Source: Trichoplax sp. H2 (lineage: Eukaryota). From it: DNA of 64,000 nt. The notes below the pieces were generated by a model. It saw only the letters and a list, made by a program, of their open reading frames with translations, had not been told where the DNA came from and did not search any database. How positions within the stretch are numbered: position 1 is the stretch's first letter; each line of letters opens with the position of its first letter. The translations under genes were made by a program, and so were the position numbers. The DNA is taken from the NCBI GenBank assembly GCA_003344405.1, contig NOWV01000019.1, positions 744,001 through 808,000 on the forward strand. Reading direction: 5' to 3'. Positions 1 through 63,665 of this stretch are shown in pieces.

Positions 1-3000
1 CAGTTTTAGCTTTGCCCTTGAATTCTTGCATTAACCCAATCATTTATACCATCTTTACGAAAAAGTTTACGAATTACGTGAATTCTTATCTAACTTGTTA
101 TAAGTGTTATAATCGTCAGTATCATGCATCGATGGCAATATACACCACATCGATAATTAGTAAAAACGCTATTAGTAAACTGAATGTGGTAGCCAAGGAA
201 GGTAATGAATCTGTCAAGAAATAAATTTTGCAACTAATGCTCATCTTATTTCATCAAATAAAATATCTTAGTATTAGTTGATTATTACCTTTTTATATAC
301 TGAAAGTTTATATCAGAAGCGCATAGTTTTAAATTATCGGAGTACTAATAATTATAACCAATTTTATTGCATGGATACGTTAAAATGATTGACTTTTCAA
401 TAAAGTTTGGATTCAGTTTCTATTAAAGAGACTATAGGTGTACTTTAACCTTCAGACCAAGGAGAAATTATTTATCAGTAATAGATTTTGCTGTAGGTAG
501 TTGTCACTTGTCAAAGAAGACAAACTTGACATTAGATTTGATGTGTTAAGTCGTTAATGGCATATTTAATTTCTTCGTTATAAGTTTTAACTTTTAACAG
601 TATCATACCGAAATTATCATATTTTAGTCTAAAATTAAATATATCTTGATATACTTAGTGTAATAGTTTTGCAAGCAAAAATGTACTATTTTTCAAATTT
701 TAATCTAAAAAAAAATATAGAAAATCTTTATTTAGACGTTAGCAAGTAATTTTACGATAGTAACGAAATCACTTTAATATTTATACCGATGTATATATAT
801 AATTCAGTAATTTACTTCAAATCATATTTTGGAATTAAATCGTATCCGTAGTGGGAATGAGAAATGGTACATGATCACTTGTAAATGAATTTTACCGTGA
901 TTAATATTTATTACCTAAACTTTATTACCTTGTAATCTAAACTTAAAAAAGATACTGGCTTTGCCAATTTTCAAGTCGTAATACTCAACCTTGGCGAATT
1001 TCCTCTTAAATCTGTAAGTATTTCACTCCTATAGTGTATGTTATTCACTCCAGACAGTTATTAGCAGTCCTCGAAATCAATCTTAGTTTGCTAATTTGTT
1101 ACGAAAAGAGTTCCGTTGCAATTTATAATATAAAATTATTGATATTTTTCTTTGACTTCAGGGCTATATCCGTGCTCAATTTATTAATAAAAATGGAAAA
1201 ACCTTATTTGCTTTGATAAAATTATATAATAAAGCTGAAAGAAAATTATGGGAAAAGGAAGTAGATTTCTATCGCTACGTTCACATGAGACGTTGGTGTT
1301 TACTAAACGTATCTCAATGTCTTTGGATATGTGAAGGAAAGAAATGCCATATCTCTTTACTAAAGAAAGATAAAGCCAAGCTACTAGATAAATTGTAAGT
1401 TGATCACAATCACTTAATAGTATTGGATTAAAAGTCCCAGTCATATAACTTTAATACGCAATTAATTAGAAATAGTCAACGTAGACAGTTGCAATAAATC
1501 CACGGTTTAGAAATGAAGAAAGATTATTAGTAATAAAACTGTCAAATATATGAGATTTCATCTGCCAATTGCCCATAATAATTATCAGATTTCTAAAGCA
1601 AAGCAAGTAAATTTGTAATGTCAAGATATATTAAAACTTACAGTGGTACATTTTATCATCCTGCTCACTTCTGGGCAGAATTATACCTGCCAACGATTAT
1701 ACCATTACTAGATGAAATTCAGTTTAACGAAATTGATAGGTAATACTTTATTTATTAATCTAAAAGTATAAACCACATCAAATTATAAATACTGTTTTGT
1801 CAACTGTTTTGAAGCAAAGGTAATTTTGAACCTATATCGCTTAAATTTCCTAAATAAAGAATCTACCTACAGAATACACGTAACTGTTATTAATTATAGT
1901 ATTTTAATGCAATATAGCTTTAAATAGAATAGCAAAGGTTGAACTCGATACTATACACATGCCATGTGATTAAATAACTACTGGTATTTATATCGTCCTT
2001 ATATCTTGCACTTTTCTTATTTGCTAAAATGATATACTGTTGTTTCCACCTTCGAAGCCTAACTTGTTACTACATGAGTGGTAATGAATTACAATCGTTA
2101 AAAGAGATGCTCGAATACAATTCCAAACATTTGTCCCCGACAGTTATTGTCAAGATCATTCTAGATATTGCAATAGCAATCAAGTCCTTGCATTCAAATA
2201 TGATAGTCCACGGCAACATTGGGACTCATGCCATTCTCCTTATTACATCTCACAAGGTAACCGAATGCATGATACATCGTCGAGCAATAGATACTCTTAT
2301 CTTATGGAAAATCATTGTTATAAATGAAAAGTTTAATTTAGTACTTTTCTAATTATTATTTAATTACAAACGTATTCAACAATCTAAATAGGAGCAGCAG
2401 GCAACAGCACTATTAAGTGAATTTTCGCATATGCACAGATTGCAATTATTCACGGGCAGTAAACAGAATGAAACAATCTCACAGTTAATGTGTAAGGACA
2501 TTAATGGGTTGGTCTCCTTGACTGAAGCTCTTTCTCTGTACTGCCAAATCGATAAAAATCGGCCATTGAATGATAGTGAAGTAGCATCGCAAGGCGATGT
2601 TAATTACGACGACTGGGAGTTAGCTCTAGAATCGGTAAGATACTATGAAGCATCATTCGAGCTGCCATTCATGAACAGTTACAAATCAAATTAATGGTAT
2701 TCCATTTATAACATTTTAAACTATTTGAACTTATCTCCTAGAATTGCGAAAACTAAAATATAACATATCAGAAGGGTATTTTACTGTTTCATTGCGTTAA
2801 AATGAATTTTTAATGTTTTGGTTACTGTTCTGCTTAACTTTGAGTCTAAGTCAAATGTTAAAATACTTAGCTTGATTTAAGATTAGTACCTAATTTAGCA
2901 TTAAGCTATATTTGTGAGTAATATTTTAGTTTTGAATTTTGAGGCGATCTAGCAATTAAGTCTGACATTCTGTGAATCTTTATCTAGCTGCAGCATATCA

Positions 3001-3113
3001 AATCGGTAATTTACGAAAGCCAAAACCATAGGAATATTAAAGAACGTCAAGAAATCATAATCTCAACTATTGAGCAACTATTTAATCGAATGCCTGAACC
3101 AGGTGATGGATAA
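1..3113 (+). CDS. 3' portion of a rhodopsin-class (LGR/RXFP-like) GPCR fused to a C-terminal kinase-like (pseudokinase) domain; 5' end lies outside the window
   Basis: Exon <1-201 reads VLALPLNSCINPIIYTIFTKKF (TM7, NPxxY) and ends at a phase-1 GT donor. Further AG/GT exons stay in frame: 952-1013 (TGFANFQVVILNLGEFPLKS), 1162-1394 (GYIRAQF..FALIKLYNKAERKLWEKEVDFY..), 2058-2256 (..IILDIAIAIKSLHSNMIVHGNIGTHAILL), 2392-2634 (ATALLSEFS..DINGLVSLTEALSLYC..DWELALES) and 2988-3113 (LQHIKSVIYESQ..TAA). Confidence 0.8.
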
Positions 3114-6825: not shown

Positions 6826-7320
6826 ACTACACTGTACACTGTACAGTGTACAGTACTTCAACTTCGCTTGCAGTACGGTAGTGGCGTGCACTGTGCAGAG
6901 TGGGTCTCCTTGCCGTCGTTAAAACTCAGTACTGTACTGTGTATACTGTACACTGTACAGTACAGTACTGTACTGTACTGTGTATACTGTACAGTGTGTC
7001 ATGTTACCTGGACGGTATATTCGCTAAGGATGCTTTCTGATATGTAGAGGATAACATGTATATTTTATACTGTAAGTATCTTTTTTTTGAGAGAGAAAAG
7101 CAAAGAAGACTCCGAGGAAGGTTTCGCTTGAAAGTTCTGTATACAGCTGACTGAGCGTACTCAGGATACTGTACTGTACATACTGTATACTGCACGGTAC
7201 TATTCGCTTGCATTTCGCTTACTTTCCGATTGCATTTGTGTGCTACAGCGGTGCAGCGAGTGTACAGTGTACAGTACAGAGGTGCGAATACAGTACTGTA
7301 CACTGTACACTGTACAGTAT
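6826..7320. repeat. Low-complexity CAGTA/TACTG/TGTACA palindromic microsatellite field
   Basis: Repeated ACTGTACAGT, TACAGTACTGTA and ACTGTACACTGTACAGT units. The overlapping T/V/Q/Y/C-rich ORFs on both strands are artefacts of this repeat. Confidence 0.85.
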
Positions 7321-9143
7321 ACCGACAATTAGCGACAAAGCAAAGCTTGTTGCCAATACAGAATTCTTCACGATCTATTCTAACCAACTGCCATGCCAGA
7401 ATTCAAACTTACCACCAATTTGAAGTTAGCCTAATAGTTCATTTTTGCTATCTCTATGGTTCGACAAGGGAGGAATTGATCGACGACTTTCAACATCCAG
7501 TTGTAGCCAAAAAAAAATGCCTTTGAAAAAGAGTCAAATTTTACAGGTGAAATATGCAACTGGATAAGTACGACAGACACAAGCTGATAACCCTAATCGA
7601 GTTTCTCATCCATTCATCAAATAGATAGTAGGCAGGAGGCGTAGGTTAGAATGAGCATCTTTTAGCTTTCATCGACAGTACTGTACAGTATAGCGTCGTA
7701 GAATGCATATCTACAGTAGTGATCCAAAGCAAAATTTTAATTTTTTATCCTTATATACAGTATATCTTGTTCATGGCCTCGAGAATGATTTGGATCCATT
7801 TCACTGCACCTAAAATTGATCCAAGCTTGATTTAGACAATGTGAATTAATCTAGAGGTCAGCTAATGTTGTACTTTATATTGATGACGATAATCATATCA
7901 GTAATGCATCTGCAAAATAAGTAAAAAATACTCTGCTATCCTTACTTTAAGCATTAATTTAGACAAGTTGATATTGTATTTACAGTCGATTATACCAATC
8001 CAACGATCGAATACTAGTTCATACCAATGCCCAAAGCTGTCATTGGCACTCTAGATGCGATCGATTAGATCATCATACTCGTACTCCAATAAAGTTCTAA
8101 TAATTGAATGAAGATAGCAATGAATGATATAATCGATGGGAAAGACTTTCATAGCCGATCAAGTAGATGTTGCTTTACTGCTTTAACAGTCTGGATCTGA
8201 CCAGTGGAATGATACCAACAAGACATGCAGTAATGTTCGTTAGGAATTGTCTGACTGTTGAAACTTCCTATAATATGGATATAGAATAGAAGTGTGAATG
8301 GAGTTCAGGAATGCAAGATGCCCTTTTATTTTATCACATGTTGGTAGTAAGAGAGTTTTGCTGTTCTATTTTTACTATAGCTTCAATAGTTCAACATTAA
8401 TATACTGTACTGCTATGGTAAGAATCAATCAATTGGACTTTGTAAGACTCATTCGACATAACTCTCCAATGCCTCTATTGATTGGTTTGACTAGTTTGTA
8501 AATGTTATATGGTTATAGCAATTTCCTAATGGACTGCCTATTCAATTTAATCGATGCCACATTGACAGTAGATCCGAAATCTCTATAACACACCAACTTT
8601 ATAAACGAAACAATTTTATTAACGTATGTATATACAAAAATAACCGTCCATTGTAAGCCAATAAATATGCCCACTCTTGACACATTCCTACAATCACTGC
8701 TATGGTCATGTTTAAGTTACATCATAAGCATGCTATCGTCAATATGTAACGCGATCCTAGTTAACTCAGTACAATGTATGATGAAATTTACGGTTGAAAT
8801 ACCATTTCATCTACAACTGAACGTATTATCTGAGCAAGCAAGTATCCAATTGCAATACCAAATTCAACTATAGCTGTCATTCGACTAACCCTACTAGATT
8901 CATTACGGAAATAGCAGACCCTAACCTCGTAATGATAGCCAAATATGTAGCAACTATTAGAGATAGTTGAATTATACGAAAAGCACAATTGCAATCTAGG
9001 TTTTAAATTGATATCGGATAACCATGTTCTTGTAATTAATCATCTAGTCAATCATACATATTATATTCGCCCTATTGCATATTATTTGCCGCAAGGCCCA
9101 ATATAGTCCTTCAGTGCATATATTTCGTTAACGTCTCTTCAAA

Positions 9144-12100
9144 ATGGCAATGGCGGAGGTATCTTTATCAATATTAAGATTCATAATATTGGACTTGATA
9201 GTAAGTATTGAATCTCTCAAGCCTGTAAACAATGATTGTAACTATGAAAAATTGAACAGAGCTAACTTTATATCTTCATAAACATAGCCCCTCTCGTATC
9301 GAACCCAATAAGTGATATTGTAATCCATCAACTTTTTTAAAAATAATTTCTCATATAAAATAAATAAATATTTTTATAGTCTAGTAGCAAGCATTAACAA
9401 TAACATCATTATAGAAACAAATGATCGAAGAAGTTACTTAATCGGCTCATATCATATTCATTACTGTAGTTGATGTATTTTAAATTTACTCGCTAGAAAA
9501 TTAATAATTAGTTATGCCTATGGAACAAAATTATAGACAGAGGAAGAAGAGAGTGATACCAACCAGCAATCCAGCAGCGACTCTTCTTTACAAAGTATTA
9601 TCAGCAGACATAACCTAAAAGCAAGATATTGGTCTTACTTATTTGATAATCTAAATCGGGCTGTTGATGAAATTTATTGCGTTTGCGAGAATGATGAAAA
9701 TATTAATGGTTGTCAGGTAACCAATCTCATGGTAGTTTGTGTCGTAAGATCATCTCAGAGTAACCTTAACGTATTTACGCCTATAACGAAATTCGGTTGC
9801 TTTAGTTAGCACCAAAAGAACAATGCAAAAAACCTAAGTTATAAAGTTTGAATTATAAGTAATTATGAACTACGATAGAGTTTCCATTATACGCGTATTT
9901 AGATAGTATAGCGAAATGATGTGTATATTATTGATATCATAATATTAATAAACAATTCATATGCATATGATCGGCAGGAAGTCATTATGACATTAGATAT
10001 ATGCAAGAAAGATTTTAATGCATTAGTTGAAAGAATTCACTTACAAACAGAATTTGAAGTTGCAGATTCAAAGTATGTATTCAATTATTGTTTTTAAATA
10101 TTTTGGTCACACAATTTTATACTTTACTATAGTAAAAAGCGTAAGCGTATGTAACATGCTGTTTTTAACCATCGATTCAATATATCCTCATAGACCAACA
10201 TCTTTAGCCTGGGAAGTCAGAAAATCCTCTCCTGGTAAATCTTTTTCTATGGATGGTAGTAGAAGAAGCTCAGAACGTACTAGCAGTAGTAGCAGTAACA
10301 GACTATCAATGGGTTCTGCCCGGAAAATTAATTTTGACATAAAAGAAAGCGATGGACAACAGAACGCTGCTGTAGAAATGCCATTAGCCAAAGATGATAG
10401 CAATCCACGCCTTGAAGTTGTACACGAAAAGACCACCTGGGCTGATAGAGTGAAAAATAAAGGCAGTGTTATCAGAGAGGTACGAAAAGTCATTCAGTTT
10501 CTTTTTTTACCAGACTAATACATTACTTTATTAACCGATACTTTAGTTTCTTAATTATCATAATGAAAATTATGTATTCGAATGTTGGTAATAGAATTTG
10601 TATCTCAGTTTAGTAAGCGACGACAGTAAATTAGACATTTTGCTATACTGTAGGTAGTAACTACGGAGTCGCAAACAAAAAAAGACAATGATTCTATCGA
10701 TAACGATGGTGAATGGACCCTCGTACACCACGGGAAATCTAAGCGTACCCGTAAGATATTACTTGCATTTTTGCCTATTATTGAAACTGTATAATGATCT
10801 CAAATTGTAAAAATATAAATTAGCTTTCTGATTATATGATCAAATAATCAATTTTGAAGTCAATTTTCTGAATCTTCTTACAGGGAGTAACCAGCAATCA
10901 GATTCTGTTAGAAATGAAACAGACTTGCAAAAACTTCAGGTGTACTTTACTTTTGATTTAAATACTTTATGCAGTATTATGGCCTAGTAATGTGACGGCG
11001 TTTCTAAACGATGTTAGGATGATTACGGCGATGAAGACATTATCCCATTTTTAGAAGCCAATGGTAGTTTATCAATAATATATGACTTATTCTTGCTTTG
11101 GTGAAATGAATTTTAAGATCCTTGAGTAAAATTTGCTATTTTTTATTGAAGACGAATTCAGAAATCTCAGTTTGGCAGATAGAATGGAACTTCTAGATGT
11201 TGATTCCAATGTTAGGCCTCCAGGTAGGGTCATTGAAATTCATCAAAAACTGTCCTCCCCAAGGAAAAGGTATCTTCAAATAAATTTAGCATTTAATAGT
11301 TAATAAAAACAGCCATAAACTGAAAGCTATCTTATTATTGGCTATAAAATTGATTCAGTATACATGACTTATCAGCATGTTATTGCTTGTCGCTATAATT
11401 ACAGACCTCTTGATGAAACTAAGCGAATTCAAGACGAACGCCAAGTCAGTAATACATTTGGCTGCAGTTGATGTGCTCAATTCCGTCATATATTATAAAC
11501 ATCTATTTGGCTATTTAAATTGATAAAAATTACATCGATTAAATAACATATGCATGACGTCACATAATAGATGAAAGCTGCGGAGCGAAGAAATTATAAT
11601 CAAAAAGAAAGATTAAAAAAAGTAAAATCAACCTTAGAAAAGGTACATTTTTGTTAGTGCTAAACAAAATTTATACCAGGATTATGACGAATTGTTGTAG
11701 AAATACTGATATGAAATACTACTAATTTTATATTTAGGGGAAAAAAATTCGACAGCAGCAAGAAGAGATGCAGCGACAAAAGAAAGAATACTTTGAAAAG
11801 AAGCATACAACAGCTGAACAAAAGAGACTTGATCAACTACGAGAAATAGTACGAAAGGCTCAGGAAGAAGATGCCAAAGTCAGTTAAAGATGCAATGTCT
11901 AATAAGAGCGCTTAGACGTGAATTATCTATATAGTTTGCATACGTGTGCTTGAATATTTATTACTATAATGTAAATCATGTTCTACAGATTAGTGAGATT
12001 GCGTTTATTAATTCATTGGAAGCCCAAAATAAGAGGATTGAAGTATTTTCGAGACATCAGGTTTGAGCACGAATGATCTACGCATAATTTAACACTTCAA

Positions 12101-18775: not shown

Positions 18776-21048
18776 TTAGCAGGCTGCATTCAAATTCTCC
18801 ATGGTGTTAACTATAATCTGTATGGAATGTATGATGTGTTTACTAGATAACTTTTCATCCCCTTGATAACCTAAGATTGCGTCTTTCACCTTAGTTAGCT
18901 GAGAAAAGATAAACTCCAATTAAGCTGTCAGTCTATTTGTACAATAAACAAAAAATGGTACAAAAACATGAAAAAAATAAAACTGCTCAGTAAATAATCT
19001 GCTCTATGTTGTCAAACTAAGTTTACTGTAGTAAATTTAGTAACGGTTCCTTATTTAATAGTGAAACAATGAATAATGTCTATCGATTATAAGAGTAAAG
19101 AGGTAAAACAAGATATGGACTAAGAAATACATAATTAATGATTAACATTAGATGCTTTAGTGGGCGATAACAATTCTTGAAATCACTGCATGGTTAATAA
19201 ATGATAAACAAGACAAAAGATAAAATAAATTAACTGAAAAGAAACGATGAATACGATAATCAAGATTTAGATATGTAATGTAGATAGAAAAAAGGTTGGT
19301 TTATTGTACTGTTTTTCTATTCTGATAGCTTCTACGCGTTTCTCTTTTATTGAGTGCAATAAAATTGACTATTTATCTTAATATTAACCTGCTTAACTTG
19401 TATTGTGAAAAGTCGAATAAGAATACGATATGGTAAACAGTATTGCAACGAGCAATCCTTTAAACTAATTTCCATCTTGATCAAAATCATATTAAATTAG
19501 ATTGTGGGTTCTGATAAGATTAAGTAGAGTTTGTCTTTGAAAAATTTAGAATAAATAGGCATTCTATAATAAATCGTATCAGAAGCGGCTCACGTTTTCA
19601 ATGAATCAGCAACATTTTCAATCAAATTACAGAATCAACTCAAATGTTGAGCGTGTGTTTGGTTTAAAGTTTAATTTCCATTAATTTGAACGGGTAGTTC
19701 ACCAGTGCATATAATGATAGTAAAGAAACTTTAGACTGGTTCCTTATAGCTGAACAATCGTTAAACATGATAAAGTCACGTTTTAAAATGGTGACAACTG
19801 TGTTGTATAGCAGCCTGGAAGTAATAAAAGAGGATAATCTGTAACATAATTCTACAAATGTAGCTCTAGGTGTATTCGAAACTAATAAATTCATTTATAC
19901 CGGTATTAATTGTGGTAGCAATTACTGTAGCTGTCACAGAGTTGGAGTTTAATTTAAAAAAATCATACATATTGCATCGAATTATCTAGAAGAATGAATA
20001 TTAGTGCAACAAAAATTGATTTAAAATTATGCTAAAATGAATTAGTAATTACGGCGCCTTACTCCTTCTTTAGCTGCTTGCCACTGATAATTATTGTTTT
20101 CGCTTTCCTGTAATGATACTGTAGAAATTGAAAGTTTCTTACAGCAATATAAAGACAGTGTTTCAGAAAGATGGCCAAAATCAATTACGTCTTGATGAAG
20201 TGCTAGAGTCTTTTCACTCCCATTATCGTTGCAATTCTTATCTTTCCAGTACATTTTAACGCGAGAAAAGTTACCAAGCATAGCTGTCACACTCTGTGTT
20301 TATTATATTTCATAAATTAAACAAACATTCTTATTCAGTGTGAGTATATTAGTAAATTCATACATCATTTATTTAATAAGCTGATCTAAATAGATGTGAA
20401 ATATTAGCTCCATCGCTAATTAATTGATATGCTGCAATTAACTAAATTGACTCAACTTACTCTTGGTTCTGTAACAACAAAAACTGCACCCGCATTGATG
20501 AAGCCATGTGCAATTAAATTCAATTGTAAAGAATCCACAGCTAAGGCAGTATCTTTAAGTATTTGCAAAATTTGCGTTGGTTGTAAAACTTTGGACTCAA
20601 GTTCCATTAAATGACTTAATATAGAAATGTTTTGCCCCTTAGTTTCGTAGCATGTTATTCTAGTAAAATAAAATTCAAAGCTTGTAAATGGCGAAAATGA
20701 TTATATAGTACCCTCATGAATTCAACCGTTAACTGTACTGTCAATCAGTCAAGATTATTTTAAAATACCGCATTAATAAAATTCTAAGTTTTGTGTTATG
20801 GCTAATATTATTTACAGTTTTCCCTGTATATCGATGTTGACCAATTCATCATTTACGATTTGACATTTGCCACCATTAATCATCCACAAACACTTGGCAA
20901 TATTTTGTAATCTAAGATTACGCCGTTTTATAGCAACGTAGAATTGCATCTCATTTTTCCAGCGTTTCATTTCATCCTTAGAATAGATTTTTAATAATCC
21001 GAACGGACAGGCCTTAGTATTTGTTTCTTGCTCAACCAATAAATAGCT
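18776..21048 (-). CDS. Kinase-like (predicted catalytically inactive) C-terminal exons of the minus-strand GPCR
   Basis: FGLLKIYSKDEMKRWKNEMQFY (beta3 Lys, alphaC Glu); QILQILKDTALAVDSLQLNLIAHGFINAGAVFV (alphaE and catalytic-loop position); AMLGNFS (DFG position); QDVIDFGHLSETL (DVxSFG of alphaF). Exon lengths of 233 and 199 nt equal those of the + strand paralog. Confidence 0.8.
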
Positions 21049-24000
21049 CTATAAACGTGAAAGTCAGTTTTTAATTCGAAGTTATATTTACTGTATATAG
21101 CCTAACAAATTTAAATTAAGGTGATATCTATCGCCCTACTTTAGTGAGGCTTAAGTAGATTATTATAATTTAACTAGCAGTCTACCACAGACTAATGAAT
21201 AAATTAATTAACGGCCATTCTAACTTCAGGCGGGTTATTTCATAGATTTGTATGACTTATTTGTGATCGTATCAATCAGATGCATTATACTAATTGCAAC
21301 AGTTAAACTTATTTAAAAATGTAAATTCGATAAATTTAGAAATGATAATAGTTTACTTTTCACCGTATGACAGTTTTTGGCAATATCTATTTTTTTTAAT
21401 GTGAATAATTTTATTCTAATAATGTAGCACTTAAAAGCCTAGGAAAAACTACTATTCTGGAGGTACCTAGATATAAAGGGTCTGGAAAATAAATACTTTG
21501 TTAACAAGTGAATTTCAAATTCAAAATTGTTTAATACATTTCATAGTTAAGCAATACCATAAAAATGAAGGAAAAATTTCAATGCTATCAAATCCAATTT
21601 AATTCTAACAACACTAATTCAAACCCCAACTGTTAATGCATTTAATGAGGGAATAACTCGCTTAAAACGGTACTTAAATAGACAAGAAATGCAATAAACC
21701 TCAACTTAGACCTTGTTATTGTCTTTCAATTAGTCGAATACCCACTGCCTGTCCAAATCTAAAGAAACTACGGTAATTAATATCTCTGTAATTTACTTAA
21801 AGCTTTATACAATTTTCTACCCAAATTTAGAACAAAGTATCAAATCTATTGATTTTGATGTTGCATTTAGAACCGCATCCTGGGAATACAAAAGTAGAAG
21901 AATATAGTAGCTTCGTGAATTTTTAGAAGAAATAACCTCTACTACTGAGATATAAAAAACAGGAAATAAATACTCTAAATTATCACTTCTTGATATTTTC
22001 TCGTCACTCAGGACTTAAAAAGGTGAAAAATAATGTTAGCAACTACTTCATGGAAATCATTTTATTTTAAATTACTGATTTAGCATTTGCATTACTGTAC
22101 AGGTAAATTAAATAGTATTTGAGCCGACCTTATCTATGTGATGAAAGGCAGTTAAAGATGATTTCGCCAGGCGCTTCTTAATTCTAGATTCGATTTCAAC
22201 ACCTTCAAGATATTAAATATTATTTAAAATAAAGCATTTAGAGCATTAGCCATTAAAATGAACGTATGATTTGTGGACTATCTTAGCCTAGAGCTAGCTA
22301 TTAAATCCAAAATTATTTAAATTTGATCGTAATCAACTTACTATGCCATTCTTGATAGCGTTCATTATGCTCAATTCGTTCACCACAACTCCAACAATAT
22401 CTCATAGGTAAAAAACAGCAACCCAATATCTTAAACCAATTATTTGCCGTATTGATAAAAGTTGTTGTAAATATAGTATACAAGATAGGATTGATACAAG
22501 AATTAAGTGGTAAGGAGAGAATAGCAATAAATGGTAAACTGTGAGTATCCAACCCTAGGCCAAATCCAGCCCGAAGTAGAACCACATACAACGGTAGCCA
22601 ACAAATGAGATCCGTTATTACAATGGTGATCATTTTAGCTCGAATAATCCTATCAGTTGTAGACATTGGACGTTGAGCTTTCTGGCGAGCCTTTGCTAGA
22701 GCAATAATAATTACAATATACATCACTGCTATTAACATCCAGACAAGTAGGGTAATGGCACAATATGATATTATCCACATCAAAAGGTAACTGTTTTCAA
22801 TATTTCCTGGTATACACGCACTATTAGTTCCATGTAAGCGCAGTGTTTTAGGTTGGTTAATGCCATTAATCACTGGGAATCCTATGTAGATTGCTGAAAT
22901 TAACCATAGCAAAATCAAAATGGTAAGTATTACAGGATAGGATATACGTTTATCTGAGAAAGGATAGATTAAGTACAAATATCTATCTAGAGTTACGAAA
23001 AATAAAATAAATGTTGACATTAGACTTGATAGCGCAATTAGAAAAGACGCTGTTAAACATGCCCAACTACGCTGCCAAAGTTCGAGATTTTCAGAATAAC
23101 GACCGGCATAATAAATATTAGCCGATGCAATAATAATTAAGTAACATCCCATCATTAGATCAGCAATAGATAAATTAATTAAAAAAGTCTTCACAGTGCG
23201 TAGATCTTTAGAAATATCAATTGAGTGCCATATAATTGAAATAGTATTTCCGATGATTGATATTGTCCCAATAGCCCAGATAAATATACGTAATGCATCA
23301 TGCGATAATATGCTTGAACATGTTGACAAATTGAGTTGGTCAGGGAGTGGATTGCATCGCTTAGCCACTGGAGGTGCGATACAACATAAATAATCACGAG
23401 TAGAATACCTACGTAAAATGCGCAAAGTGTTTTGAATTACTGCAAAATTGCTCTAAGAAATATTTTAGTAAATATTTGATTTTAAATATCCTACAATTAT
23501 GACATTAACAGCAAGGCGTAAAATATACAGATACGTGACTTTTTAAAATATTAGATAACTTATCATGTACACGAATCTTAAATGAATTAGTCCATGCATG
23601 GCTTTTGCATTGAAATTTAGCAGCGGATTATTTTCCAAATGCCTACACAGGAAATTAATAATATTTTCCAAACGCTACCACAATTTTAACGAACTTCGAT
23701 AATATATCTTAACTTAAACTCAACTAAATCCTTATATAATTAATTTTTCATTCTCTATGTGATTTATATACCGCAATTTTTAATACATATTAACTTGAAA
23801 TCAAATTTCAAGCTTTCAATAGCTATATTCAAATTTAAGGGACACTCATACATAACTACGGGGAGCGTAGTGGCTTTTGGTTGACTTCAACGATTCATAA
23901 TTTTTAAGTTATCTTTTCTAACAAAACAATTTTTGAAGTTAATAACTACTATTTTACCGCAACAAAACGAATTAGCGAAGGAAAAATGTACTTTATGTGT

Positions 24001-27000
24001 CTATACTTTAGACAATTTCCTAAATGTTTCATGGACTTCTACGGCTGATGATGTGAATAAGATTATCTATGGGATCGATTACCCTGCAATTCCTGCAGAC
24101 ATCGATGTTTCGGGTATTTTTGAAGAAATGTTAGGCGTCTTGTGGAAGGTAACTTAAATAAATGGTACTTATTCCTGTAAAAAGATATTACTATTTTATA
24201 TCTTGGATTTTAGAGGCTATGTGCCGTTTAAGTTAACTTCTACGATGGCGCACAATATATCGTCAAACTTAGCCAAAATTACGGTATTAAATACATTCAG
24301 AACTAACGATAGACTGTTAGATAGTCAGCAATTTCAATAATGTAATGCGTAGAGCAGTAGCTATTAGTTGTGAGTTTTCAAATTAGTATGAGTGATACAA
24401 CCCAAATATAGTTAAGATTAAGATTACAAGATTGTACGAGAATTAGGAAACTATTCATAGAGGATTATGACAGAACGTATAGTAGTAATTCAATTGAGAT
24501 ATTTATATTAAGATTCTGAGACATAAATAGATTTCACTAAGGTACCGTATACAAGTACAGAGGGATTTAAATTGCAACGCTTTAATTAGAAGCTCGAATT
24601 ATGAATAGATGACATGATAGCAAATTCAGATCCCATCTTGCGTCTTAATTAGAATATGATTGCGGCTAGATAATGCTTGGTAGTTATTCGAAATATCCAG
24701 TTTATGCAATAAATTGACATTTACAAGAAACTATAGTACATGTTTCATTGTTTGAAGGTACTATATCACAGTATTCAATAAGAGCTATATATTATGTATT
24801 GCGATAAACAATACGCAGTATTAATTTACGTGCTATAATTCGAGTGTCCGACCTAAAGTATCATCTTAGTAAGTTAGCATAGGTGTGAAATATTGATTTT
24901 GCGTTAATAAGACAGATGTGACTGGATGCTGTGTGTAACATTAACTAGTATTATAAGAAATTCCATTCCCACCGTCCAGTGTGCCGATTTCACTCGTCTC
25001 AGCATAAATAAATAAATTTATCAGTTTATTTGGACCATCGTATCCGTCTTGACTATTCTACTGAGAAGGTGTTTAATTACAGATATGCGCTCCTGTTATA
25101 GATTTCAGCTCATAAAGAAACTTTATCAGCAGGCCTCTCAAATCTCAGAATATATAGCTATAAGTTTGATGTAATAAATTAAGCTTTATATAGCTGAAAA
25201 TAGAAAACACTTGCTGTTCAGGAATTGAAAACTGACGCATGGCAAATAATCCTTATCCGCATGCGAAAGCTTCATATCGAGTAATTTAATACACAGTAAT
25301 TATCATTATTCTATATGAATAAATTAAAGACTCAAAATATAATAATGCATACATGTACAGTACATTAGCTTTAGCTACTAGTGGAATTTTTCAGCATTGA
25401 AAAAATCTTTGATTTAAACATGAATAATAGCATTTAACATTATATTGTTAACAACGCTGCTATCAATGTATGACGGTATACTATCATGCATATGTATCGT
25501 ATGTATGTCTTATTTAGAACTCTCTTAGTTATTTCTAAAGAAAACTACATTTAGAAAATTTTAGCTTACTGTGCAACAGTTGCCGCAATGATGGCAGCTA
25601 ATAGTAATACACGTAATTAGTAGTTTGAATTTGTATCTAAGAAATCGAAATATATATCTCCTTGGAAATGACAATGTGATAATGCAAACTATAAAAATGA
25701 TTTTCCGTTATTAATAGCCTCTAATACGACATCACCTATCAATCCATTACAGTTAAATACTTTAACAGCATTATGAAGAAGTACGCTTTTAAATTATAGT
25801 AAAAAATATGTCTAATAGATCATAACCCTATCATTTCATAATCAATAAACAATCGCAGAATTTTAAACTTGCAAATATACGATATTAGATGATTTTATAT
25901 TTGTATATTTTAACTTTGACGTTGAATTAATTCTTTCACACTTACAGCTCTTCTAGATTTTGAAAAGTAAAGAAGCAATTAGCTGACAGCGTATAAATTT
26001 TATTCCAGTTCAGATTTCTGTGTGAAATCATTGATTGAAATAATTAGATGGATCAAGAACAGGTAGTATAGTAATCGAACGAACTATTCTAATTGAAATA
26101 GTTGAAGTTCAAAGTAGGTTTGTATCTTAATCTCCCAGCTCGAAGATATCAAAAAGTAATGAAGGTTAATGTTTAGAAATCTAGTTCAAGCTTTTTGTTA
26201 TTTTAAAAAGCATTATAGCTTTAAAAATAACTAAATTTTAGTTTAATTACAGTAGGTTTAACCTAGAATCGTAAGATATTGTAAACTCGACTCCTTTATT
26301 TGGGTTAGAATACTTAAGAATATTCTGTAGTATAATTTTGATAAGAATACTACGATGATAGAATGTAATTTATGCAACATATTTAGCAAGTAAAATACTT
26401 TTGCTATAACTATGATAAAAACTTGTAGCCAATTTTGATTACAAATGTCGTAGAAATAATTTTAATTCGCTATTGAATACAATGTAAACCCAAACGTTTC
26501 GATCTGGGTTCTAATTTAAGATTGTTAGTCTGCCTCGGTCTTTTCTGATAGTTATCGATGTATATAAAGTAGAAGCCGATTTTTATCGAATAGCATCACA
26601 GCCAAACTGAGAGTGAAATTGTCGATCTAGCAAATGTAATTCGTAACTTTATATTAAGTAGAATTTACTTTTCTAATAATTATTCCCATACTGAAATAAT
26701 TGATACTGGTCTACATTATATCTTACAGACAATTTCTTAAACCATATATATAATTTACGTAAGAATTAGCAATTTTAATTCATTCCATAGCACTTATTGA
26801 TCACTAAATAACTTTTTATTTATGATTTATCCTTTATGTATAATCAATCAATCTGTGCTTGGGACTTCCTTCTATACCTTAATTAACAAATTTTACGCTT
26901 TGATCTTCTTATCATCACAGCGTTTACTCTTTACGAGTATAAATGCAGTATTGAAAATCTTTAATTGCATGAAGATTAGTACACTATAAACTACCTGATG

Positions 27001-30000
27001 TACTTTCTAATGTTAATTTAACTCTAATAAAGAATTTAATAAGACATTAATGCCACTAATCAGCAAATAATCCATAAAATCTATCGAAGGTAGATGGCAA
27101 AATATCGCTTTCTTCCAACTATCAACACGAGTATAGTTAGTTCATATTTACGAAGCATTAGTGAATCTGTATAACATTTCCTATGCTTAGTAAATCGAAT
27201 GTTTGCACATGGTTGAAATATAAGCTAGATCAGCTTAACTTACAATACTGCTATGGATTTTCCGAATAATCGAGAGGCATTTCTCAAGCAAATATCAAAG
27301 ATTTCATTGCTGGACATCACCCTGTAGGCATTCATCCAATTAGTAAATACGCCAAGAGTATTATCAAATAAGAAATACCGGTAATTCTTAGACTTGAATT
27401 AAAAAAGCAACACTTGCAATGTTTTCAATTCAGATAGCTTGGCGACACTGGCAAAGTCTTCATTACCGAGGTAATTGTTATCTAAATATCTAGATAAAGA
27501 GTGTGGTAGCAATTGCAGTGTAAGTTAAACTTTAATATAAGATGCATCTACTAATGCCAATTTAACAACCAACAGTACCAAGACCTAGCTGATAATAGAA
27601 CTGAATATGACTATTCTCGATAGTTTTCCCAACTACATCAGGAGAGAAAAACTAAAACGTAGCGTTGTATCTTCGATAACTTTCGCTTAAATTTTCATTT
27701 GCTATGAGTTTTGTATGACATAAAATCCTAATCTTACAAGTGTTGAACAATCGTCAGTAGCGCTAATGATGAAACATTGATATGTCGAATGCCATTCCAG
27801 CCAAGTTTTCTGTACCGTGAGAATATGTATATTTCGTGCCAAAGAAAAAAGAAATACGTTAAGGGATTTGAAGAAAATTTTAAATGATAAAATTCCTTAT
27901 AATGCTATGTGAGCTACTTTTATCTTTCATTAAAGCAACTCACAGGGAATTGATCTCGGACAAGGTACGGAAAAGCTCTATAGGGAATTCACCAATTCCT
28001 AAGCCTTCCAAATTTCTTTGAGTAGCCGTAATTGAATACAAAGTATTTACCGAATATAGTACACCGTATATACTATATTCTATCTATACAATATATTTTA
28101 CAAATTATACAGTACACTCCAACCACTTTAAAATAAGTATTTTATACTTAAAGTCGCTTACATATCGCTGTATTGAGTATTCTTTGACAGCAGCTGGACG
28201 ATTGCTTCTCTTGATAGATTGGTGAAACCTAGGCTGCTATAAATTGTAACATAGATAATGAGCAAGTATTTATTATGCTTTTCACATTTTTGCATGATAT
28301 AGCTAACACCCTATCCCTGGAATAATGATCTAAATATATAGAAGTTAATAAGATGAATTAACCATATTAAAATAAGTATTTGCTGATTTGTTGGAAGTAA
28401 ATGACATCAATACTTCAAAGCAACTAAAACGTTATCCACATATAATTGAATAAAAGATACCACTGAAAGTCTAATTCTAATGTAAAGCGCATAGTTTTGA
28501 ACTTTTGACGTTTATTAAATATTCTGAAAGCGCTTTCTTATACTACATAGTGTTAATACTAAGAATTCGTCATAATTCAAAATATGTTTATATAAGTTTA
28601 CGAGTATAAAGTAAAATTATGACCGTCGAACAATAATTAATTTATAACCCCGCAATGTTATCTATAATTATGATTATGAATAAGAAAAATAGCACCAAAA
28701 GTATCATTTTGTAAACTTAGATTAGAAAGAAAATTTAATTGATTACAAGCTACAATGTAAAGTAGATTTACTAGGTCAATGTACTAATGGAAGGATTTTT
28801 AGTTATCTTGTGTATAAACCCTATCTTAGATTATTATCAGCAATTGAATACTACTGTACAGTTATTCATTCTCGGAAGTTTTGATATTACATAAGGTCAG
28901 AAAATACTTAATGTACTTTAAAATCTATTTTATCACTTTCTACTATGATTTACCGTATCTACATTTTTAAAATCAGCTAGATAAATACTTTTATCTCTTA
29001 CATCGATTTCAGGGTACTTTTGTTTCTTATTGCTGTTATATTTAATCCAATTAGATTGTTGCTATCTAGTTTTCTGAAATCATAGTAAAGTAATATTCTT
29101 TGGTAGTCCATTTCCACATATTTTTTACATCATAGTCGAGTCCTGCTACATTTTACAATGCTGAAACATTTATATGTACATAGTTTGCAATTTGGGAATT
29201 CTTCTCATGAAATGCCGGTTAATAGTTGAAGCAGTGAAATTGCAATGCTGTAGTTCTCTACAAATTAAAAATAGTTATGAAATGCATAAATAAGATATTA
29301 TCATAAAATGATACATGATACAAGACAAGATATTGAACAGTAAGACTAGGAATGCTTTTCAATAAGCAATGCAGTGTTACATGTAATAATCACAGTATCC
29401 TTAAACTTTTATCTCTAAACTCTACGAATTTTGGACATTATAATAATACTTATTTTGAGGAAATCTCGGAAAGATAGAAGAAAGTAAGGTACCATAATAT
29501 CGTTATTTTTTTAACTTATAACATATAGGTGATGATATTTTAGGCCGCTAACGCAAACAGTGAATTAAATATTATTTAACAATATGACATCACAAATAAA
29601 TCCGCTGTCATTGCAATTGCATTAGCGAAAGAAATTTCAAATAATCAATTCTCTTGGAAAAATTTGATTTTGTAAGAAGAATCTGAAACGAGGCAACAAA
29701 ATCTAGACTGTCACGGTAATTTGCGATATCTTGCTTACTATGAAATTAATAATGGCCTTAAAATGCATAAAAAGGTGCCAATCAGAATAACTGTAAGCGC
29801 TTAATACTCTAATTAATACCGAAAAGCTATAGTCGGTATGAATTTCGCTGCAAAGCTTTATTAATATTCCTAAAGAAATTGAAATGCGTTCGTATTACGG
29901 TAACTATAATCAGTTATATCTATTTGCACTATATAATATCTTACGACTCATAACTGTTTTAATATGCTGACGATAACATCTTAGTTATTAAAACCCTTAG

Positions 30001-33000
30001 CGTAAGACGCAAACTATATAGTAGCTTTATTCTTTTGGCAACTAACACAATCAGCCATTTTAAAATATCCGTTCAAATATCGTTGAAGCACTTCTATTAT
30101 CAATTTCCTCTCATATTTAGCTCGGAAAAGCCGAAAATTATGAAGATATTGGTAAAAAAAAGAGCTTCCTGCAATAGCGGCTTACAAATTACAATAATAC
30201 TTCGCTGTCTTTCAGTCAATAAGTCAACGCAACGTTGCTGTATTTAATATTGAACTATTTTATGTTATATATATACCTATATATATAGTATTTAAGACTT
30301 CATACGATTAAACTCAGAGAGAATCTTGCTTATGAAGTTAAATTTAATTGTATATAATACTGCTAAACAATTATTGTAATTATTACAAATGTGAGAGGGC
30401 GATAAGATGTTCAGAATTGACAAAATCAACTGATTGCAATAATCTATTTTCATTGATGTACCTATCCAATAAAATAAAAATTAAGTGTAAAATATGAAAT
30501 TTAGAAATTAACAGGATCTAAGAGATTATTCAACTCTTACAAATGCGATAGGTGTTTTAGAGAATGAAATGCCTCTCGTGGTAATTGCTTAAAGAGATTG
30601 TTGCTAATATCACTGAAATAAAGAATCTTTTATTAGGATTATACTGATAAATATTTTACGTCTACAGATTTAGTTTATGCTGAAAAATTAATTGTTTTAC
30701 AGTTCTTCAAAAGATACACTAAAGGTTAAAATGAACATTTAATAAAGTTGATACTACTAGTTAGAATTTTCTTAATAAAATATTTTTAAATTTTGTCGTA
30801 AAACGAACAGAGAATATAGTCGATATATTTCATTGAAAGCGAAATGGGGAAGGAGTTCAATTCGGTTACTTGCAAAATTCCTGCAAATTAGGATTAAAAT
30901 ACTAAGTGTTATACAACATGCAAAAAGGAGCCAAACTGCATGCCTGTAGTTCATACAGAGCCTTACTTCAGTTAAAGAACTATCTATAAGCAGTACATAA
31001 TGCAATTGTGGCTTTCAGTCTCAAGAAATACACATTCCTTAGAGAAAATGAATTTCAAATGTACATTTCCAGGACTAACTCTAACGTAATAATGATATGT
31101 TACAGAATCATAATCTTCGATAATGTGATTTAGTTATTCTTACAAAATTTCGACATATGGTATCCTTGTAAAAAGTTGGACGGGTATCTCAGACATTAAA
31201 TTACCGCGGAGATAACTAAGATGATAAAAGATAATTAAGTCATTTAATGACGATCAAAATTGTACTTCTAGTAAATAGTAATTTTTTATTAGATTTAACA
31301 ATAAAAAATAGAAACGCAATGATAATCGAACTCAGCCCAAAGCATTATGCTTGGATAACATAAGCTCAATTTACCTTGCTTTAGCAATACTTATACGATT
31401 ATAAATTTTAAAAGATTTTATGTTTAAGGATACTGGAAATTCAAAGTTCCCATTATTACGCTGCTGCATAATAATTTACATCTGAATTTCTAGAAATATG
31501 GAACATTGAAGTCATAATTCATATCGCAAGATAGACTAATAGGAATATAGTAGGATATGATTGTCAGTTAATATAGTTACATTACGCGATAAGATCTTAC
31601 ACAGCAAATCCTGCAAATAAAATTGTATCGTGCTGCTTTCAAGGAAGCAAAGGAGCTTAGCGCTACTAGTAGGGAGCTTTATAGAAGAGCATCTTTTGCG
31701 GTATCATAGTGCTCTTGTTTTCATCTTAATTTCTTAAATAAATTAATGTAGCGATTCAGATGAGCCAAATGTGCTACTTAGGATATACGTAAACACATTG
31801 TCTTAGTAATTGATGTCTTAGTAATTGATGCTCTTCATGAGACCACTTACGAGATAGATTATATGCTTTATTTTGAAATAGTCTAACTAATCTTACTAAC
31901 TTTTATTCCTCAAGAGAAATCCTTACATACTTTATAAGATCTATTCATATTGCGTATTTTAATTTGTCGAATGGCCTAGAGAATGCTAGAAAAAATGGGC
32001 GCATTTCTTAACGTCCAGAATTCTTGAAATCTCCCCTTACTGTACTCTGTATTTTTATCTTAAAAAACGTGGTTATCCCTTTTCTCCGCCTACTTCTTTA
32101 CAGGCCTTAATTACTGTGTTCTAATACTTTTTCCAAAGAACTAGTTGTAACACTAAGTTATCCAAAAGTTGTAGGCAACAACTATACTGGAACTACATCT
32201 TACAAAATGAATTTCAGGGGCAAGTAGCCTTACCTCAAGCATAAAATAGAGTGTGTCGATAAGTATACTTACAGTTTACGTAAGGAAGATAATTTTCCAA
32301 AAGTTTCACCATGGATATATCGAATTTTGTTCTCAGATAAGTCGCTTACAGTTTAAATTTCCCGAAATATGATATTGCAAATGATGTTATTAGTATTAAG
32401 TAACGAAAAATGAATGTTAATGTTGTAATTCTTAATAAATACATCCTCTCCAAAGGTGCCAAACTTGAGAACAAATTTGATCCCAAATATTCTAATTTGT
32501 TGTAGCTTAAATCCCTGTTTTCCATGACATTAAGTTTTTACCATGATATAATGTTAGAATTTTAGTTTTATCTTAAGATCCTCTAAAAGAATCTTTGCGA
32601 AACGTTGTAAAATATTGATACATATTCAGGCGTAACATTTTTGACTTACAAACTTTTCAGCGCGTGATTGTAACTAAAACTGTTGGGTTTAATTTCTGAA
32701 ATCTCATTATGATCCAAGGCACTAATACATTATGTAAATACAATTTAAAAATTGGTTATTTGGCGACGTTAATCCAGTAGACACTAAATGTAGATTTGCT
32801 TTTAAATATTTTTGGCAAGCTTTAAGTAATACATACAGCTGCATAACGTACTGACAGCCGGATAACTGCGAGCTAGTAATGGTCCTAAGTCGATTAGAGC
32901 TAAAAGCTCTTTGATACATATATCAGAGATGTAAATTTCATAATATACTATAAATCTTTCAAAAATTTTGTGGATAATTTACTATACTCTATAGTCAGCT

Positions 33001-62550: not shown

Positions 62551-63540
62551 TCTTCGATCGCAACGTCGAAAATACGGTAGTTAGTTGGTTTTTAGTTCGA
62601 AATGTCTGTCCGTATGGTTAGGTTCAGCTCATAGAGTTGACTTAACTCTATGGTTCAGCTAGAGCCATTTTTAACACTACTACATTCATACTGTTTTTTA
62701 CAGTTAATACTATACAGTACTGTAGTGTACAGTACAGTACAGTACAGTACAGTACAGTAAGAAGTACTGTACATTCAGTATGCAGTACTGTACTTGACAA
62801 AATTTTTGTTATTGCACAGTACGGTACTGTACTTTACAGTGTACAGTATGTAGCATAGCTGCACTGGTACTTGTAAAATGCGTGAGAATCACATGATCGT
62901 AACGAATCGTAACCATACTGTACGGTAGACCACTACAGTACAGTCACCACAGTGCACCAAGTCCAGTACTGTACAGTACAGTACTGTACTGTACCGTACT
63001 GNNNNNNNNNNNNNNNNNNNNCTTCGATCGCAACGTCGAAAATACGGTAGTTAGTCGGTTTTTGACTACGAAATGTCTGTCCGTATGGTTAGGTTCAGCT
63101 CATAGAGTTAACTTAACTCTACAGTGCATGGTTCAGCTAGAGCCATTTTTAACACTACTGTACAGTACAGTACTGTACACTGTACACTCAGTGAGTGTAC
63201 AGTACAGATTGTACAGTACTACATGCATACAGTACTGTACTGTACACTCATTAGTGAGTGTACAGTGTACAGTACTTGACAAAATTTTTGTTATTGCACA
63301 GTACAGTACAATACAGTACTGTACAGTACAGTATATTGCATAGCTGCACTGGTACTTGTAAAATGCGTGAGAATCACATGATCGTAACGAATCGTAACCA
63401 TGGACCACTACAGCACTGTACCACAGTGCACCAAGTCCAGTACTGTACAGTACAGTACTGTACTGTACCGTACTGTACGTACTGTACAGTACGGTACGGT
63501 ACTGTGCTGTACAGTGTACAGTACGACAGTATACTGTATC
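62551..63540. repeat. Duplicated unit (62551-63001 and 63022-~63475) around a 20-N gap, rich in CAGTA/TACTG palindromic microsatellite
   Basis: Both copies start CTTCGATCGCAACGTCGAAAATACGGTAGTTAG and share GCACTGGTACTTGTAAAATGCGTGAGAATCACATGATCG; (CAGTA)n runs are visible at about 62725-62760. Confidence 0.88.
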
Positions 63541-63665
63541 TTTGCTAGTCCATCATTCTGTCTGTGTGTCCGCATACTACAGAGTAATAACACTTAAATA
63601 TCCAAGACAAGTCACTGTCGATACGTTTTAAACTGCTTATACTGTCTGTGTACCATAAAATCAAA

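Follow-up and report, generated by a model that had tools for sequence, protein, structure and literature searches.

Receptor genes of Trichoplax sp. H2 with a kinase-like, apparently non-catalytic tail

Two convergent genes and their transcripts

The sequence considered here, hereafter the window, is a stretch of 64,000 nucleotides from the placozoan Trichoplax sp. H2 (assembly GCA_003344405.1, contig NOWV01000019.1, positions 744,001 to 808,000 of the forward strand); positions are counted from its first letter. It contains two convergent genes, paralog 1 on the plus strand and paralog 2 on the minus strand, each of which joins the seven-transmembrane (7TM) part of a G-protein-coupled receptor (GPCR) to a kinase-like tail. 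The window is AT-rich (G+C content 28-38%) and its exons are short. The sole long open frame, 22313-23452 (-), encodes a 7TM domain of the rhodopsin family (Pfam 7tm_1, E 2.6e-24); the 64-kb window showed no second exon of this kind. The kinase-like domain of paralog 2 is spread over three exons within 20063-21048 (-), which bear the motifs named in a preliminary description made from the sequence alone. Matching motifs of paralog 1 lie at 1162-2634 (+); the end of transmembrane helix 7 (TM7) is found at the first bases of the window, and motif-bearing open stretches lie downstream of it at 1156-2694 (+).

The exons and landmark residues of paralog 2 are listed here in the order of its transcript.

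22342..23405, minus strand: 7TM exon, with the end of the hinge and the whole 7TM domain (rhodopsin class; Pfam 7tm_1 E 2.6e-24); ends in phase 1; borders from contig X1
22129..22202, minus strand: small exon of 74 nt, with the linker and the start of the kinase-like N-lobe, lacking a glycine-rich loop; X1 joints 22200/22340 (cut +2) and 21048/22129; AG/GT borders
20816..21048, minus strand: exon K1, 233 nt, with beta2-beta3, helix C and beta4; from the X1 contig and translation
20461..20659, minus strand: exon K2, 199 nt, from beta5 and the hinge through helices D and E to the catalytic loop; its joints are seen in X1 and RNA-Seq run X5
20063..20293, minus strand: exon K3, 231 nt, with beta8, NFS, a short activation segment lacking APE, and helix F; from X1/X5 joints and translation
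18776..18898, minus strand: last coding exon, 40 codons and TAA, with the last C-lobe helices; X5 loose end, open frame, and alignment with the C-termini of P0001 and P0002
20989-20991, minus strand: beta3 Lys
20950-20952, minus strand: alphaC Glu, within W-x2-E-x2-F-Y at 20938-20961
20500-20508, minus strand: HGF in place of HRD
20485-20487, minus strand: Ala at the catalytic-Asn position
20264-20272, minus strand: NFS in place of DFG
20189-20191, minus strand: helix-F Asp
20081-20083, minus strand: conserved Trp in exon K3

Transcript evidence for paralog 2 comes from contigs of four public runs placed on 19300-25000. The X1 contig (1911 nt) joins 23642-23568, 23405-22342, 22202-22129, 21048-20816, 20659-20461 and 20293-20057; five of these six pieces have no differences to the window and the sixth has one. 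All five stretches that it skips are of the form GT...AG on the minus strand, and the intron between K1 and K2 measures 156 nt in the transcript. The joints 23405/23568 and 20293/20461 are also seen in the RNA-Seq library X5. This library has a loose end at 20059, the letters of which occur once in the window, at 18865-18894; the last-exon joint is 20063/18898 (allowing one mismatch absorbed by the aligner), with GT at 20062-20061 and AG at 18900-18899. A candidate last exon at 19985-19866 was ruled out because the loose end of the RNA maps to 18865-18894. Once spliced, the frame is open from the 7TM exon to the TAA at 18778-18776. From the X1 joints and the open frame, it follows that the receptor and the kinase-like part of paralog 2 belong to one transcript and one reading frame; the fusion is transcribed. 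Contigs X2 and X3 run unspliced across the region with 90-95% likeness to the window, and provide no transcript evidence.

The interval 20063..21048 given in the preliminary description has exact exon borders at both ends (acceptor AG 21050-21049, donor GT 20062-20061, minus strand), yet only three of the five tail exons lie inside it. With the missed last exon the tail has 286 residues, and is therefore not truncated after helix F; in the model of the relative P0001, the C-lobe aligns through to the end of the kinase domain of ACVR1. The apparent shortness of the C-lobe after helix F came partly from the missed exon (18898-18776), and the term 'truncated' should be replaced by 'compact, with shortened activation segment'.

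Paralog 1 enters the window in its 7TM exon.

3..201, plus strand: end of the 7TM exon (TM7, NPxxY, helix 8); 98.5% in tblastn with P0002; remainder of the gene lies beyond the window start
952..1013, plus strand: small exon of 62 nt, counterpart of 22202-22129
1162..1394, plus strand: exon K1, 233 nt; length and phase as in paralog 2
1644..1739, plus strand: 96-nt cassette between K1 and K2, in frame and AG/GT-flanked; present in annotated proteins P0045 and P0002
2058..2256, plus strand: exon K2, 199 nt; its open reading frame (ORF) matches Pfam PK_Tyr_Ser-Thr with 24.1 bits (cut-off 23.1), E 2.6e-5
2392..2634, plus strand: exon K3, 243 nt
2988..3113, plus strand: last exon, with stop codon
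1219-1221, plus strand: beta3 Lys
1258-1260, plus strand: alphaC Glu
2209-2217, plus strand: HGN in place of HRD
2230-2232, plus strand: Ala at the catalytic-Asn position
2419-2427, plus strand: EFS in place of DFG
2497-2499, plus strand: helix-F Asp

The two paralogs share the lengths of K1 and K2 (233 and 199 nt) and all intron phases. Their tails are of 287 (paralog 1) and 286 residues (paralog 2), and in both the splice sites are intact and the frame is open. P0045 is the annotated protein of paralog 1, and its tail is identical to that encoded in the window; P0002 is the Trichoplax adhaerens ortholog. The 96-nt cassette, which would insert about 32 residues between beta4 and beta5, is identical in these two proteins (31/31 residues); it is absent from the paralog 2 transcript and from every other family member seen.

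The translation of paralog 2 keeps the receptor switches LDRY (DRY-type), CWLP and NPILY, so its receptor part looks like a working GPCR. Trichoplax proteins called 'GRL101-like' come closest to the 7TM ORF (61% identity), and relaxin receptors and LGR4-like proteins from other animals come next; these names belong to the leucine-rich-repeat (LRR) GPCRs, or LGRs. An LRR ectodomain is seen in P0045 of paralog 1 (Pfam LRR_8 E 8.2e-38, 7tm_1 E 1.3e-25), whereas paralog 2 has only weak LRR-like exon matches at 27.4-32.5 kb (-). For P0045 and two further fused proteins, P0046 and P0047, Pfam gives LRR, 7tm_1 and weak kinase matches only. Among single minus-strand ORFs upstream of the paralog 2 7TM exon there is one weak LRR_8 match. 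The loose end of the X1 contig places the next upstream exon of paralog 2 at about 25946-25974. The weak LRR-like exon matches upstream of its 7TM exon extend over 27411-32513 (-); further weak matches at 37420-37491 and 45949-46050 (-) may or may not belong to this gene.

Predicted fold, catalytic residues and kinase group

Kinase likeness is hard to see in single sequences. The Pfam kinase match has an E of 2.4e-4 for P0002 and 0.11 for the relative P0001; the best match in a single-sequence PDB search is the pseudokinase VRK3 (E 0.31), and a word-index search with the P0001 tail returned P0001 alone. Three alignments of the tail were used: a five-row profile, a cleaned 28-row family alignment (A4) and an N-lobe-only profile (A5). 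Of the 32 proteins that the five-row profile found at E <= 1e-3 among 1.84 billion representatives, eight are ordinary or multi-kinase proteins (best E 3.7e-7) and the other 24 belong to the family, some of them as fragments the size of an exon. A4 searched against the PDB found IRE1 at E 3.9e-4, and all 60 matches listed are protein kinases. The hhalign alignment of A4 with one ordinary kinase has a probability of 95% and takes in 64 columns, which run from helix D as far as the DFG position. Pfam remains mostly under its cut-off, with PF07714 matched at E <= 1 by nine of the 28 rows. In the ESM Atlas the tail of P0045 hits kinase clusters at 0.97, and the ten best all belong to one clan. In P0037 and P0042, two long proteins among the distant profile matches, three or four kinase-like domains follow each other in tandem, and HRD is replaced by HG[DNH] or HCN in several of these domains.

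Structure prediction points the same way. The AlphaFold2 model of the P0001 tail, built with A4, has a predicted local distance difference test score (pLDDT) of 84.7 and a predicted template-modelling score (pTM) of 0.84; only its first 24 residues are below 50. Foldseek matches this model to at least 500 PDB chains at E <= 0.001 (best E 2.9e-7), and the matches listed are all kinases or kinase-fold pseudokinases. A second look with VIA aligned 213 residues of the model to ACVR1 (Z 18.0, root-mean-square deviation (rmsd) 4.0). A VIA search made without Foldseek preselection found 282 of 48,161 chains at Z >= 8, the first at 17.3. Taken together, the two VIA runs give a best Z of 17-18 with 213-218 residues aligned. 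The VIA alignment with ACVR1 reaches the last residue of the model and residue 498 of ACVR1, so the C-lobe appears to be present to its end. The tail of both genes is thus predicted to have a eukaryotic protein-kinase-like fold.

In the P0001 model, strands and helices follow in kinase order up to beta8. A single 38-residue helix, which carries the helix-F Asp, starts 11 residues past the DFG position, and two more helices follow. Paralog 1, P0001 and paralog 2 have the helix-F Asp 25, 26 and 27 residues past the DFG position, respectively, compared with 36 in PKA; from the helix-F Asp to the C-terminus there are 76 residues in P0001. The tail is compact: its activation segment is shortened, and glycine-rich loop, P+1 and APE are absent. 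Helix G is probably missing because of the number of helices in the model.

The catalytic residues are almost always lost in the aligned rows. In A4, none of 17 rows has Asp at the third position of HRD; the variants are HGN, HGS, HGF, HGG, HGC, HGH, HSN, HRN and YGN. The catalytic-loop Asn is likewise found in 0/17 rows, all 17 having Ala, Ser or Thr. Asp is found at the DFG position in one of eight rows (P0016); P0047, a relative outside A4, has DFT there. A4 has no conserved alternative acidic residue in the catalytic loop. The skeleton of the domain is retained: 12 of 14 rows have the beta3 Lys (Arg and Ser stand in the other two), 15/15 have the alphaC Glu, and the spine residues His of HRD and Phe of DFG are present in 16/17 and 8/8, respectively. 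In K1-type sequences a W, an E, an N, a W and an I are invariant (9/9). A pseudokinase, with spine and salt bridge kept and chemistry lost, is therefore a well supported reading of these sequences.

Most of the motif readings in the preliminary description agree with these data. Codon coordinates on the translations confirm the kept beta3 Lys and alphaC Glu of both paralogs. The replacement of HRD by HGN (paralog 1) or HGF (paralog 2), of the catalytic-loop Asn by Ala and of DFG by EFS or NFS is as described, and neither translation has an intact GxGxxG or APE. It had been asked whether additional exons restore the catalytic motifs; the small and last exons restore none. Given that the Asp and Asn of the catalytic loop and the Asp of DFG are lost, the proposal of a non-catalytic pseudokinase is a sound inference. 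The described N-lobe pattern is right in its residues but not in its spacing: the spacer is of seven residues rather than six (K-I-Y-x7-W).

The kinase group from which the domain came is less clear. An affinity to the serine/threonine kinase receptors (STKRs) of the tyrosine-kinase-like (TKL) group had been suggested. The structure ranking leans towards TKL, although the scores are near-tied. The best ten of 48,161 chains in the VIA search are TGFBR1, IRAK4, a rice receptor-like kinase (RLK), ScRIPK, NFR5, a cacao RLK, IRAK4 again, IRAK1, ActRII and IRAK3, all of which we take to be TKL or IRAK/Pelle-type kinases. TGFBR1 comes first (Z 17.3, rmsd 4.1, 216 aligned); the scores of IRAK4, NFR5, ActRII and IRAK3 are 17.2, 17.1, 16.6 (18% identity) and 16.5. 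The first non-TKL chain is TBK1 at Z 16.3. Differences under 1 in Z count as ties, and TBK1, IRAK4 and the plant RLKs are thus within the tie margin of TGFBR1. Sequence profiles do not share this leaning: the order of A4 matches in the PDB is IRE1, MAPKAPK3, MST1/2, CDKL3, SRPK1, CDPK, TBK1 and PAK, and the best of these (IRE1, MAPKAPK3, MST1/2, CDKL3, SRPK1) fall outside TKL, which speaks against the suggestion at the level of sequence. Among the matches listed, TGFBR2 is the sole one through the N-lobe (profile positions 26-84), with a non-significant E of 0.26. The N-lobe-only profile A5 matched no kinase in the PDB, only a non-significant stretch of EGFR. The Pfam model of TK/TKL type (TK, tyrosine kinase) is slightly ahead of the general model, with nine versus seven of 28 rows matched and a best E of 3.5e-5 versus 1.6e-4. 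The N-lobe pattern K-x-[FY]-x7-W-x2-E-x2-[FIV]-Y resembles that of STKR kinases, at the level of motifs and with no backing from statistics. An origin from TKL kinases is possible and for now the most plausible guess.

The HGN motif had also been taken as a pointer to the kinase-homology domains of receptor guanylyl cyclases. Several HGR and HGS entries in published tables of kinase homologues are presumably guanylyl cyclases. HGN is, however, also listed for JAK JH2 domains and VRK3 (passage of PMC2639636), and HGN, HGR and HGS are found among other non-enzymatic kinase homologues (passage of PMC2754085). HG[NRS] is therefore not diagnostic for guanylyl cyclases. Guanylyl-cyclase chains are not among the matches listed for the PDB profile and VIA searches, an absence which excludes nothing.

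Family, possible role and further features of the window

The two genes belong to a larger family, the named members of which are all from Trichoplax. Its core positions are kept in at least 24 proteins or fragments of exon size that represent clusters at 50% identity. A cluster look-up of ten proteins gave six names from Trichoplax adhaerens or Trichoplax sp. H2, three fragments and one generic kinase (P0036). The records of P0013 (paralog 2 ortholog) and P0002 (paralog 1 ortholog) are consistent with a gene pair that has been conserved. The first T. adhaerens annotation splits one member into TRIADDRAFT_61684 (receptor) and the adjacent TRIADDRAFT_61685 (tail), which underlie P0021 and P0016; in Trichoplax sp. 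H2 this gene is annotated as a single protein of 896 aa, named 'Relaxin receptor 2' (P0046). Fused proteins are found in later annotations as P0045 (1129 aa), P0046 (896 aa), P0047 (641 aa) and P0001 (747 aa). Relatives appear in public records as 'Relaxin receptor 2' and 'GRL101-like'. In UniRef, both the tail model TRIADDRAFT_61685 and the tail fragment P0044 are called 'Protein kinase domain-containing protein'; automated annotation therefore saw the kinase likeness in the fragments, and the fused models carry receptor names. The family has probably been overlooked so far because its domain lies below Pfam thresholds and early gene models separated the tail from the receptor.

The reading which is judged to be the most probable, and which is held with some reserve, is that these genes encode LGR-type receptors with a compact, non-catalytic kinase-fold tail that serves as a docking or allosteric module. 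Each of the convergent genes would produce an LRR ectodomain, a rhodopsin-class 7TM domain and a cytoplasmic kinase-fold tail of about 286 residues. Normal phosphate transfer would be excluded by the loss of the catalytic Asp and Asn, the metal-binding Asp, the glycine-rich loop and the APE/P+1 region. The structural skeleton is kept: the beta3 Lys still pairs with the alphaC Glu, and HRD retains its His, DFG its Phe and helix F its Asp. Some 40 residues separate the tail from helix 8, and it would be held there as a non-catalytic module. Activation of the receptor could then change the position or the conformation of the docking or allosteric surface. We infer that the tail would recruit or regulate a partner, the likeliest candidates being an active kinase or some other protein of signalling; besides, it could control whether G protein or arrestin reaches the core of the receptor. 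A more far-reaching version of this proposal, in which a sizeable branch of the expanded placozoan LGRs would consist of hybrid receptors, is unlikely but worth stating. A hormone-binding GPCR would carry a pseudokinase that pairs with an active TKL-type kinase and so provides a link that is independent of G proteins; the pairing would be like that of TGF-beta type I and II receptors or of NFR1 and NFR5.

Several observations weigh against a docking or allosteric module. The structure model covers one relative (P0001) and not the window's own proteins. The kept Lys and Glu make nucleotide binding, and with it a ligand-dependent or weakly catalytic role, possible. Tails evolve much faster than receptors: those of paralogs are mostly 26-32% identical, compared with 54-61% for the 7TM domain (the tail range excludes the orthologous pair and one close paralog pair, at 42.5%). 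Between paralog 1 and its T. adhaerens ortholog there are 2 changes in 378 receptor residues and 11 in 319 tail residues; between paralog 2 and P0013, 4 of 97 receptor residues and 19 of 214 tail residues have changed. Contigs X2 and X3 differ from the window by 214 letters and 18 gaps over 4,449 bases, and in the non-coding stretch 19338-20053 by 37 of 716 nt, or about 5%; they share two of the amino-acid changes of P0013 in exon K3. Taking about 5% as the neutral divergence and counting protein differences only, dN/dS is roughly estimated at near 0.3 for the tail of paralog 1 and near 0.7 for that of paralog 2, the latter indicating weak constraint.

These rates bear on the idea that a GPCR-kinase fusion was once active and has since been decaying, so that the tail of today would be a relic that does little or nothing. 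In this case the loss of all catalytic residues, the tails evolving several times faster than the 7TM domain (with that of paralog 2 near neutral by the rough estimate) and the Pfam scores below threshold in nearly all members would be expected. Against it, both paralogs have an open frame and intact splice sites, and the tail is transcribed and correctly spliced. The core positions persist in 24 sequences of family type whose clusters share less than 50% identity, the predicted fold has a high confidence score, and the paralog 1 tail has changed at 3.4% of its residues as against our own estimate of about 12% under neutrality. Decay of this kind is considered quite improbable. The opposite idea, that the tail is an atypical active kinase or other ATP-using enzyme with relocated residues, is very unlikely. 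It has the kept beta3 Lys (12/14) and alphaC Glu (15/15) in its favour, as well as the Asp at the DFG position of P0016 and P0047 and the HRN of P0024, and kinases with migrated residues are known, such as WNK1 and titin (passage of PMC2639636). Against this, catalytic Asp and Asn are absent in 17/17 rows, no other acidic residue is conserved in the loop, and there is neither a glycine-rich loop nor a P+1/APE region to hold a substrate.

The tail might instead be chiefly a dimerisation module, arranged back-to-back as in IRE1 and RNase L or head-to-tail like other pseudokinases, with ligand binding by the LRRs read out through a receptor dimer. Both IRE1 and RNase L act as kinase-fold dimers, and LGRs of the glycoprotein-hormone type dimerise. 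IRE1 is the best PDB profile match and RNase L is among the top Foldseek matches listed, but the match to IRE1 is limited to 48 residues of generic kinase core, between helix E and the DFG position, and the tail surface is poorly conserved among paralogs (26-32% identity). A role mainly in dimerisation is thus thought unlikely. An artefact of annotation or assembly, in which a receptor gene lies beside a separate kinase-like gene, is scarcely credible. The split models TRIADDRAFT_61684/61685 of the first T. adhaerens annotation might suggest it. It is contradicted by the one spliced contig that bridges the 7TM and kinase-like exons in frame, with no start codon context needed, and by the fused proteins P0045, P0046, P0047 and P0001 of later annotations. 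What the data show is the fusion and its transcription, a predicted kinase fold, the loss of catalytic residues and conservation across the family; a non-catalytic docking or allosteric tail with some partner would account for them and is the reading retained here.

The remainder of the window contains few other features of note. Between the two receptor genes, a serine-rich open stretch at 10027-10518 (+) matches SCAPER_N just below threshold (24.1 bits, cut-off 25; E 3.7e-5) and is probably an exon of another gene. At the far end, 63591-63998 (+) runs off the window; it has a signal-peptide-like start and matches Glycohydro_20b2, the beta-hexosaminidase N-terminal domain, with 29.1 bits (cut-off 27). 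A 175-bp unit is present at 6072-6426 in two tandem copies which are 96% alike. Short tandem repeats of the GTACT/CAGTACTGTA type are found at 62722-62793, 63434-63524 and 7004-7526, and both strands have open frames through low-complexity stretches like these. Near 63000 some bases in succession are unknown, and appear as X in the ORF 62903-63343. Rfam has no match in the window.

Comparison with known receptor and kinase systems

Canonical LGRs, such as relaxin receptors, GRL101 and glycoprotein hormone receptors, have an LRR ectodomain and a rhodopsin-class 7TM domain, as do the proteins described here. Their tails are short and unstructured. A total of 46 LGRs has been counted in Trichoplax adhaerens, and the word kinase is absent from the text of that review (PMC9545775); it is also absent from that of a 2025 preprint on placozoan GPCRs. 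No description of a placozoan GPCR-pseudokinase fusion was found in the literature searched, supplementary files being outside that search.

Among single-pass receptors, receptor guanylyl cyclases share with this tail the arrangement of a membrane receptor carrying an intracellular pseudokinase. Their kinase-homology domains have an HG[NRS] loop and are regulatory, nucleotide-sensing modules; HG[NRS] is present in the catalytic loop here too. In the cyclases a single membrane pass is followed by pseudokinase and then cyclase, whereas here the protein ends 286 residues after TM7, with no cyclase. GC-C is listed with HGR (passage of PMC2639636). Non-enzymatic homologues with HG[NRS] retain D[FYH]G and APE (passage of PMC2754085); here both the DFG Asp and APE are missing. 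In structure the P0001 model is best matched, though near-tied with others, by STKR kinases and by IRAK/plant RLK kinases, among them two pseudokinases, IRAK3 and NFR5. Apart from these two, such kinases are active enzymes; they are found on single-pass receptors or adaptors, and the type I receptors have a GS region.

The closest parallels in design are other GPCRs fused to kinase domains. GPCR-TKL/K proteins of acanthoecid choanoflagellates and GPCR-TK proteins of choanoflagellates and sponges likewise combine a 7TM and a kinase-fold domain in one polypeptide; according to passages of PMC12716839, no member has been functionally characterised. Trichoplax adhaerens was among the proteomes of this survey, the most recent one, and the same passages report GPCR-TKs in no animal lineage but sponges. 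Their 7TM domains are described as clustering with no known GPCR family (PMC12716839, in part), whereas here the receptor is a rhodopsin-class LGR with an LRR ectodomain. Their kinases are found by standard domain searches and relate to TKL, TK and other kinases, as far as those passages go; here the domain is below the Pfam threshold in nearly all members and appears to be catalytically dead. The GPCR-bigrams of oomycetes and amoebozoans have the same plan of a GPCR with a C-terminal intracellular signalling domain (passages of PMC6033456 and PMC10463195), and those of oomycetes include GPCR-TKL (PMC6033456, in part). Bigrams are found in protists and, in these passages, their accessory domains are predicted to be catalytic; the present case is an animal with a putative pseudokinase. 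GPCR-type transmembrane kinases with TK-clade kinases are described in sea urchins and felids in PMC10463195, a paper in which neither Trichoplax nor placozoa is named.

Thus GPCR-kinase fusions have been described for oomycetes, amoebae, ciliates, choanoflagellates, sponges and a few other animals, and none has a known function. The same design is found here in a rhodopsin-class, LRR-bearing placozoan family in which the kinase part seems to have turned pseudokinase, is expressed and has multiplied into many paralogs. The LGR-pseudokinase fusion is a further form of the GPCR-kinase-domain fusions; neither its receptor class nor its animal lineage was to be expected, and it makes up an expressed family of some size. 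Provided that the tail does act in signalling, some of the expanded placozoan LGRs, put at 46 genes in one count, would signal unlike textbook LGRs and would offer a tractable case of a dead kinase domain reading the state of a GPCR. Should they prove to be hybrid receptors, a link between GPCRs and receptor kinases would have arisen in an animal without neurons.

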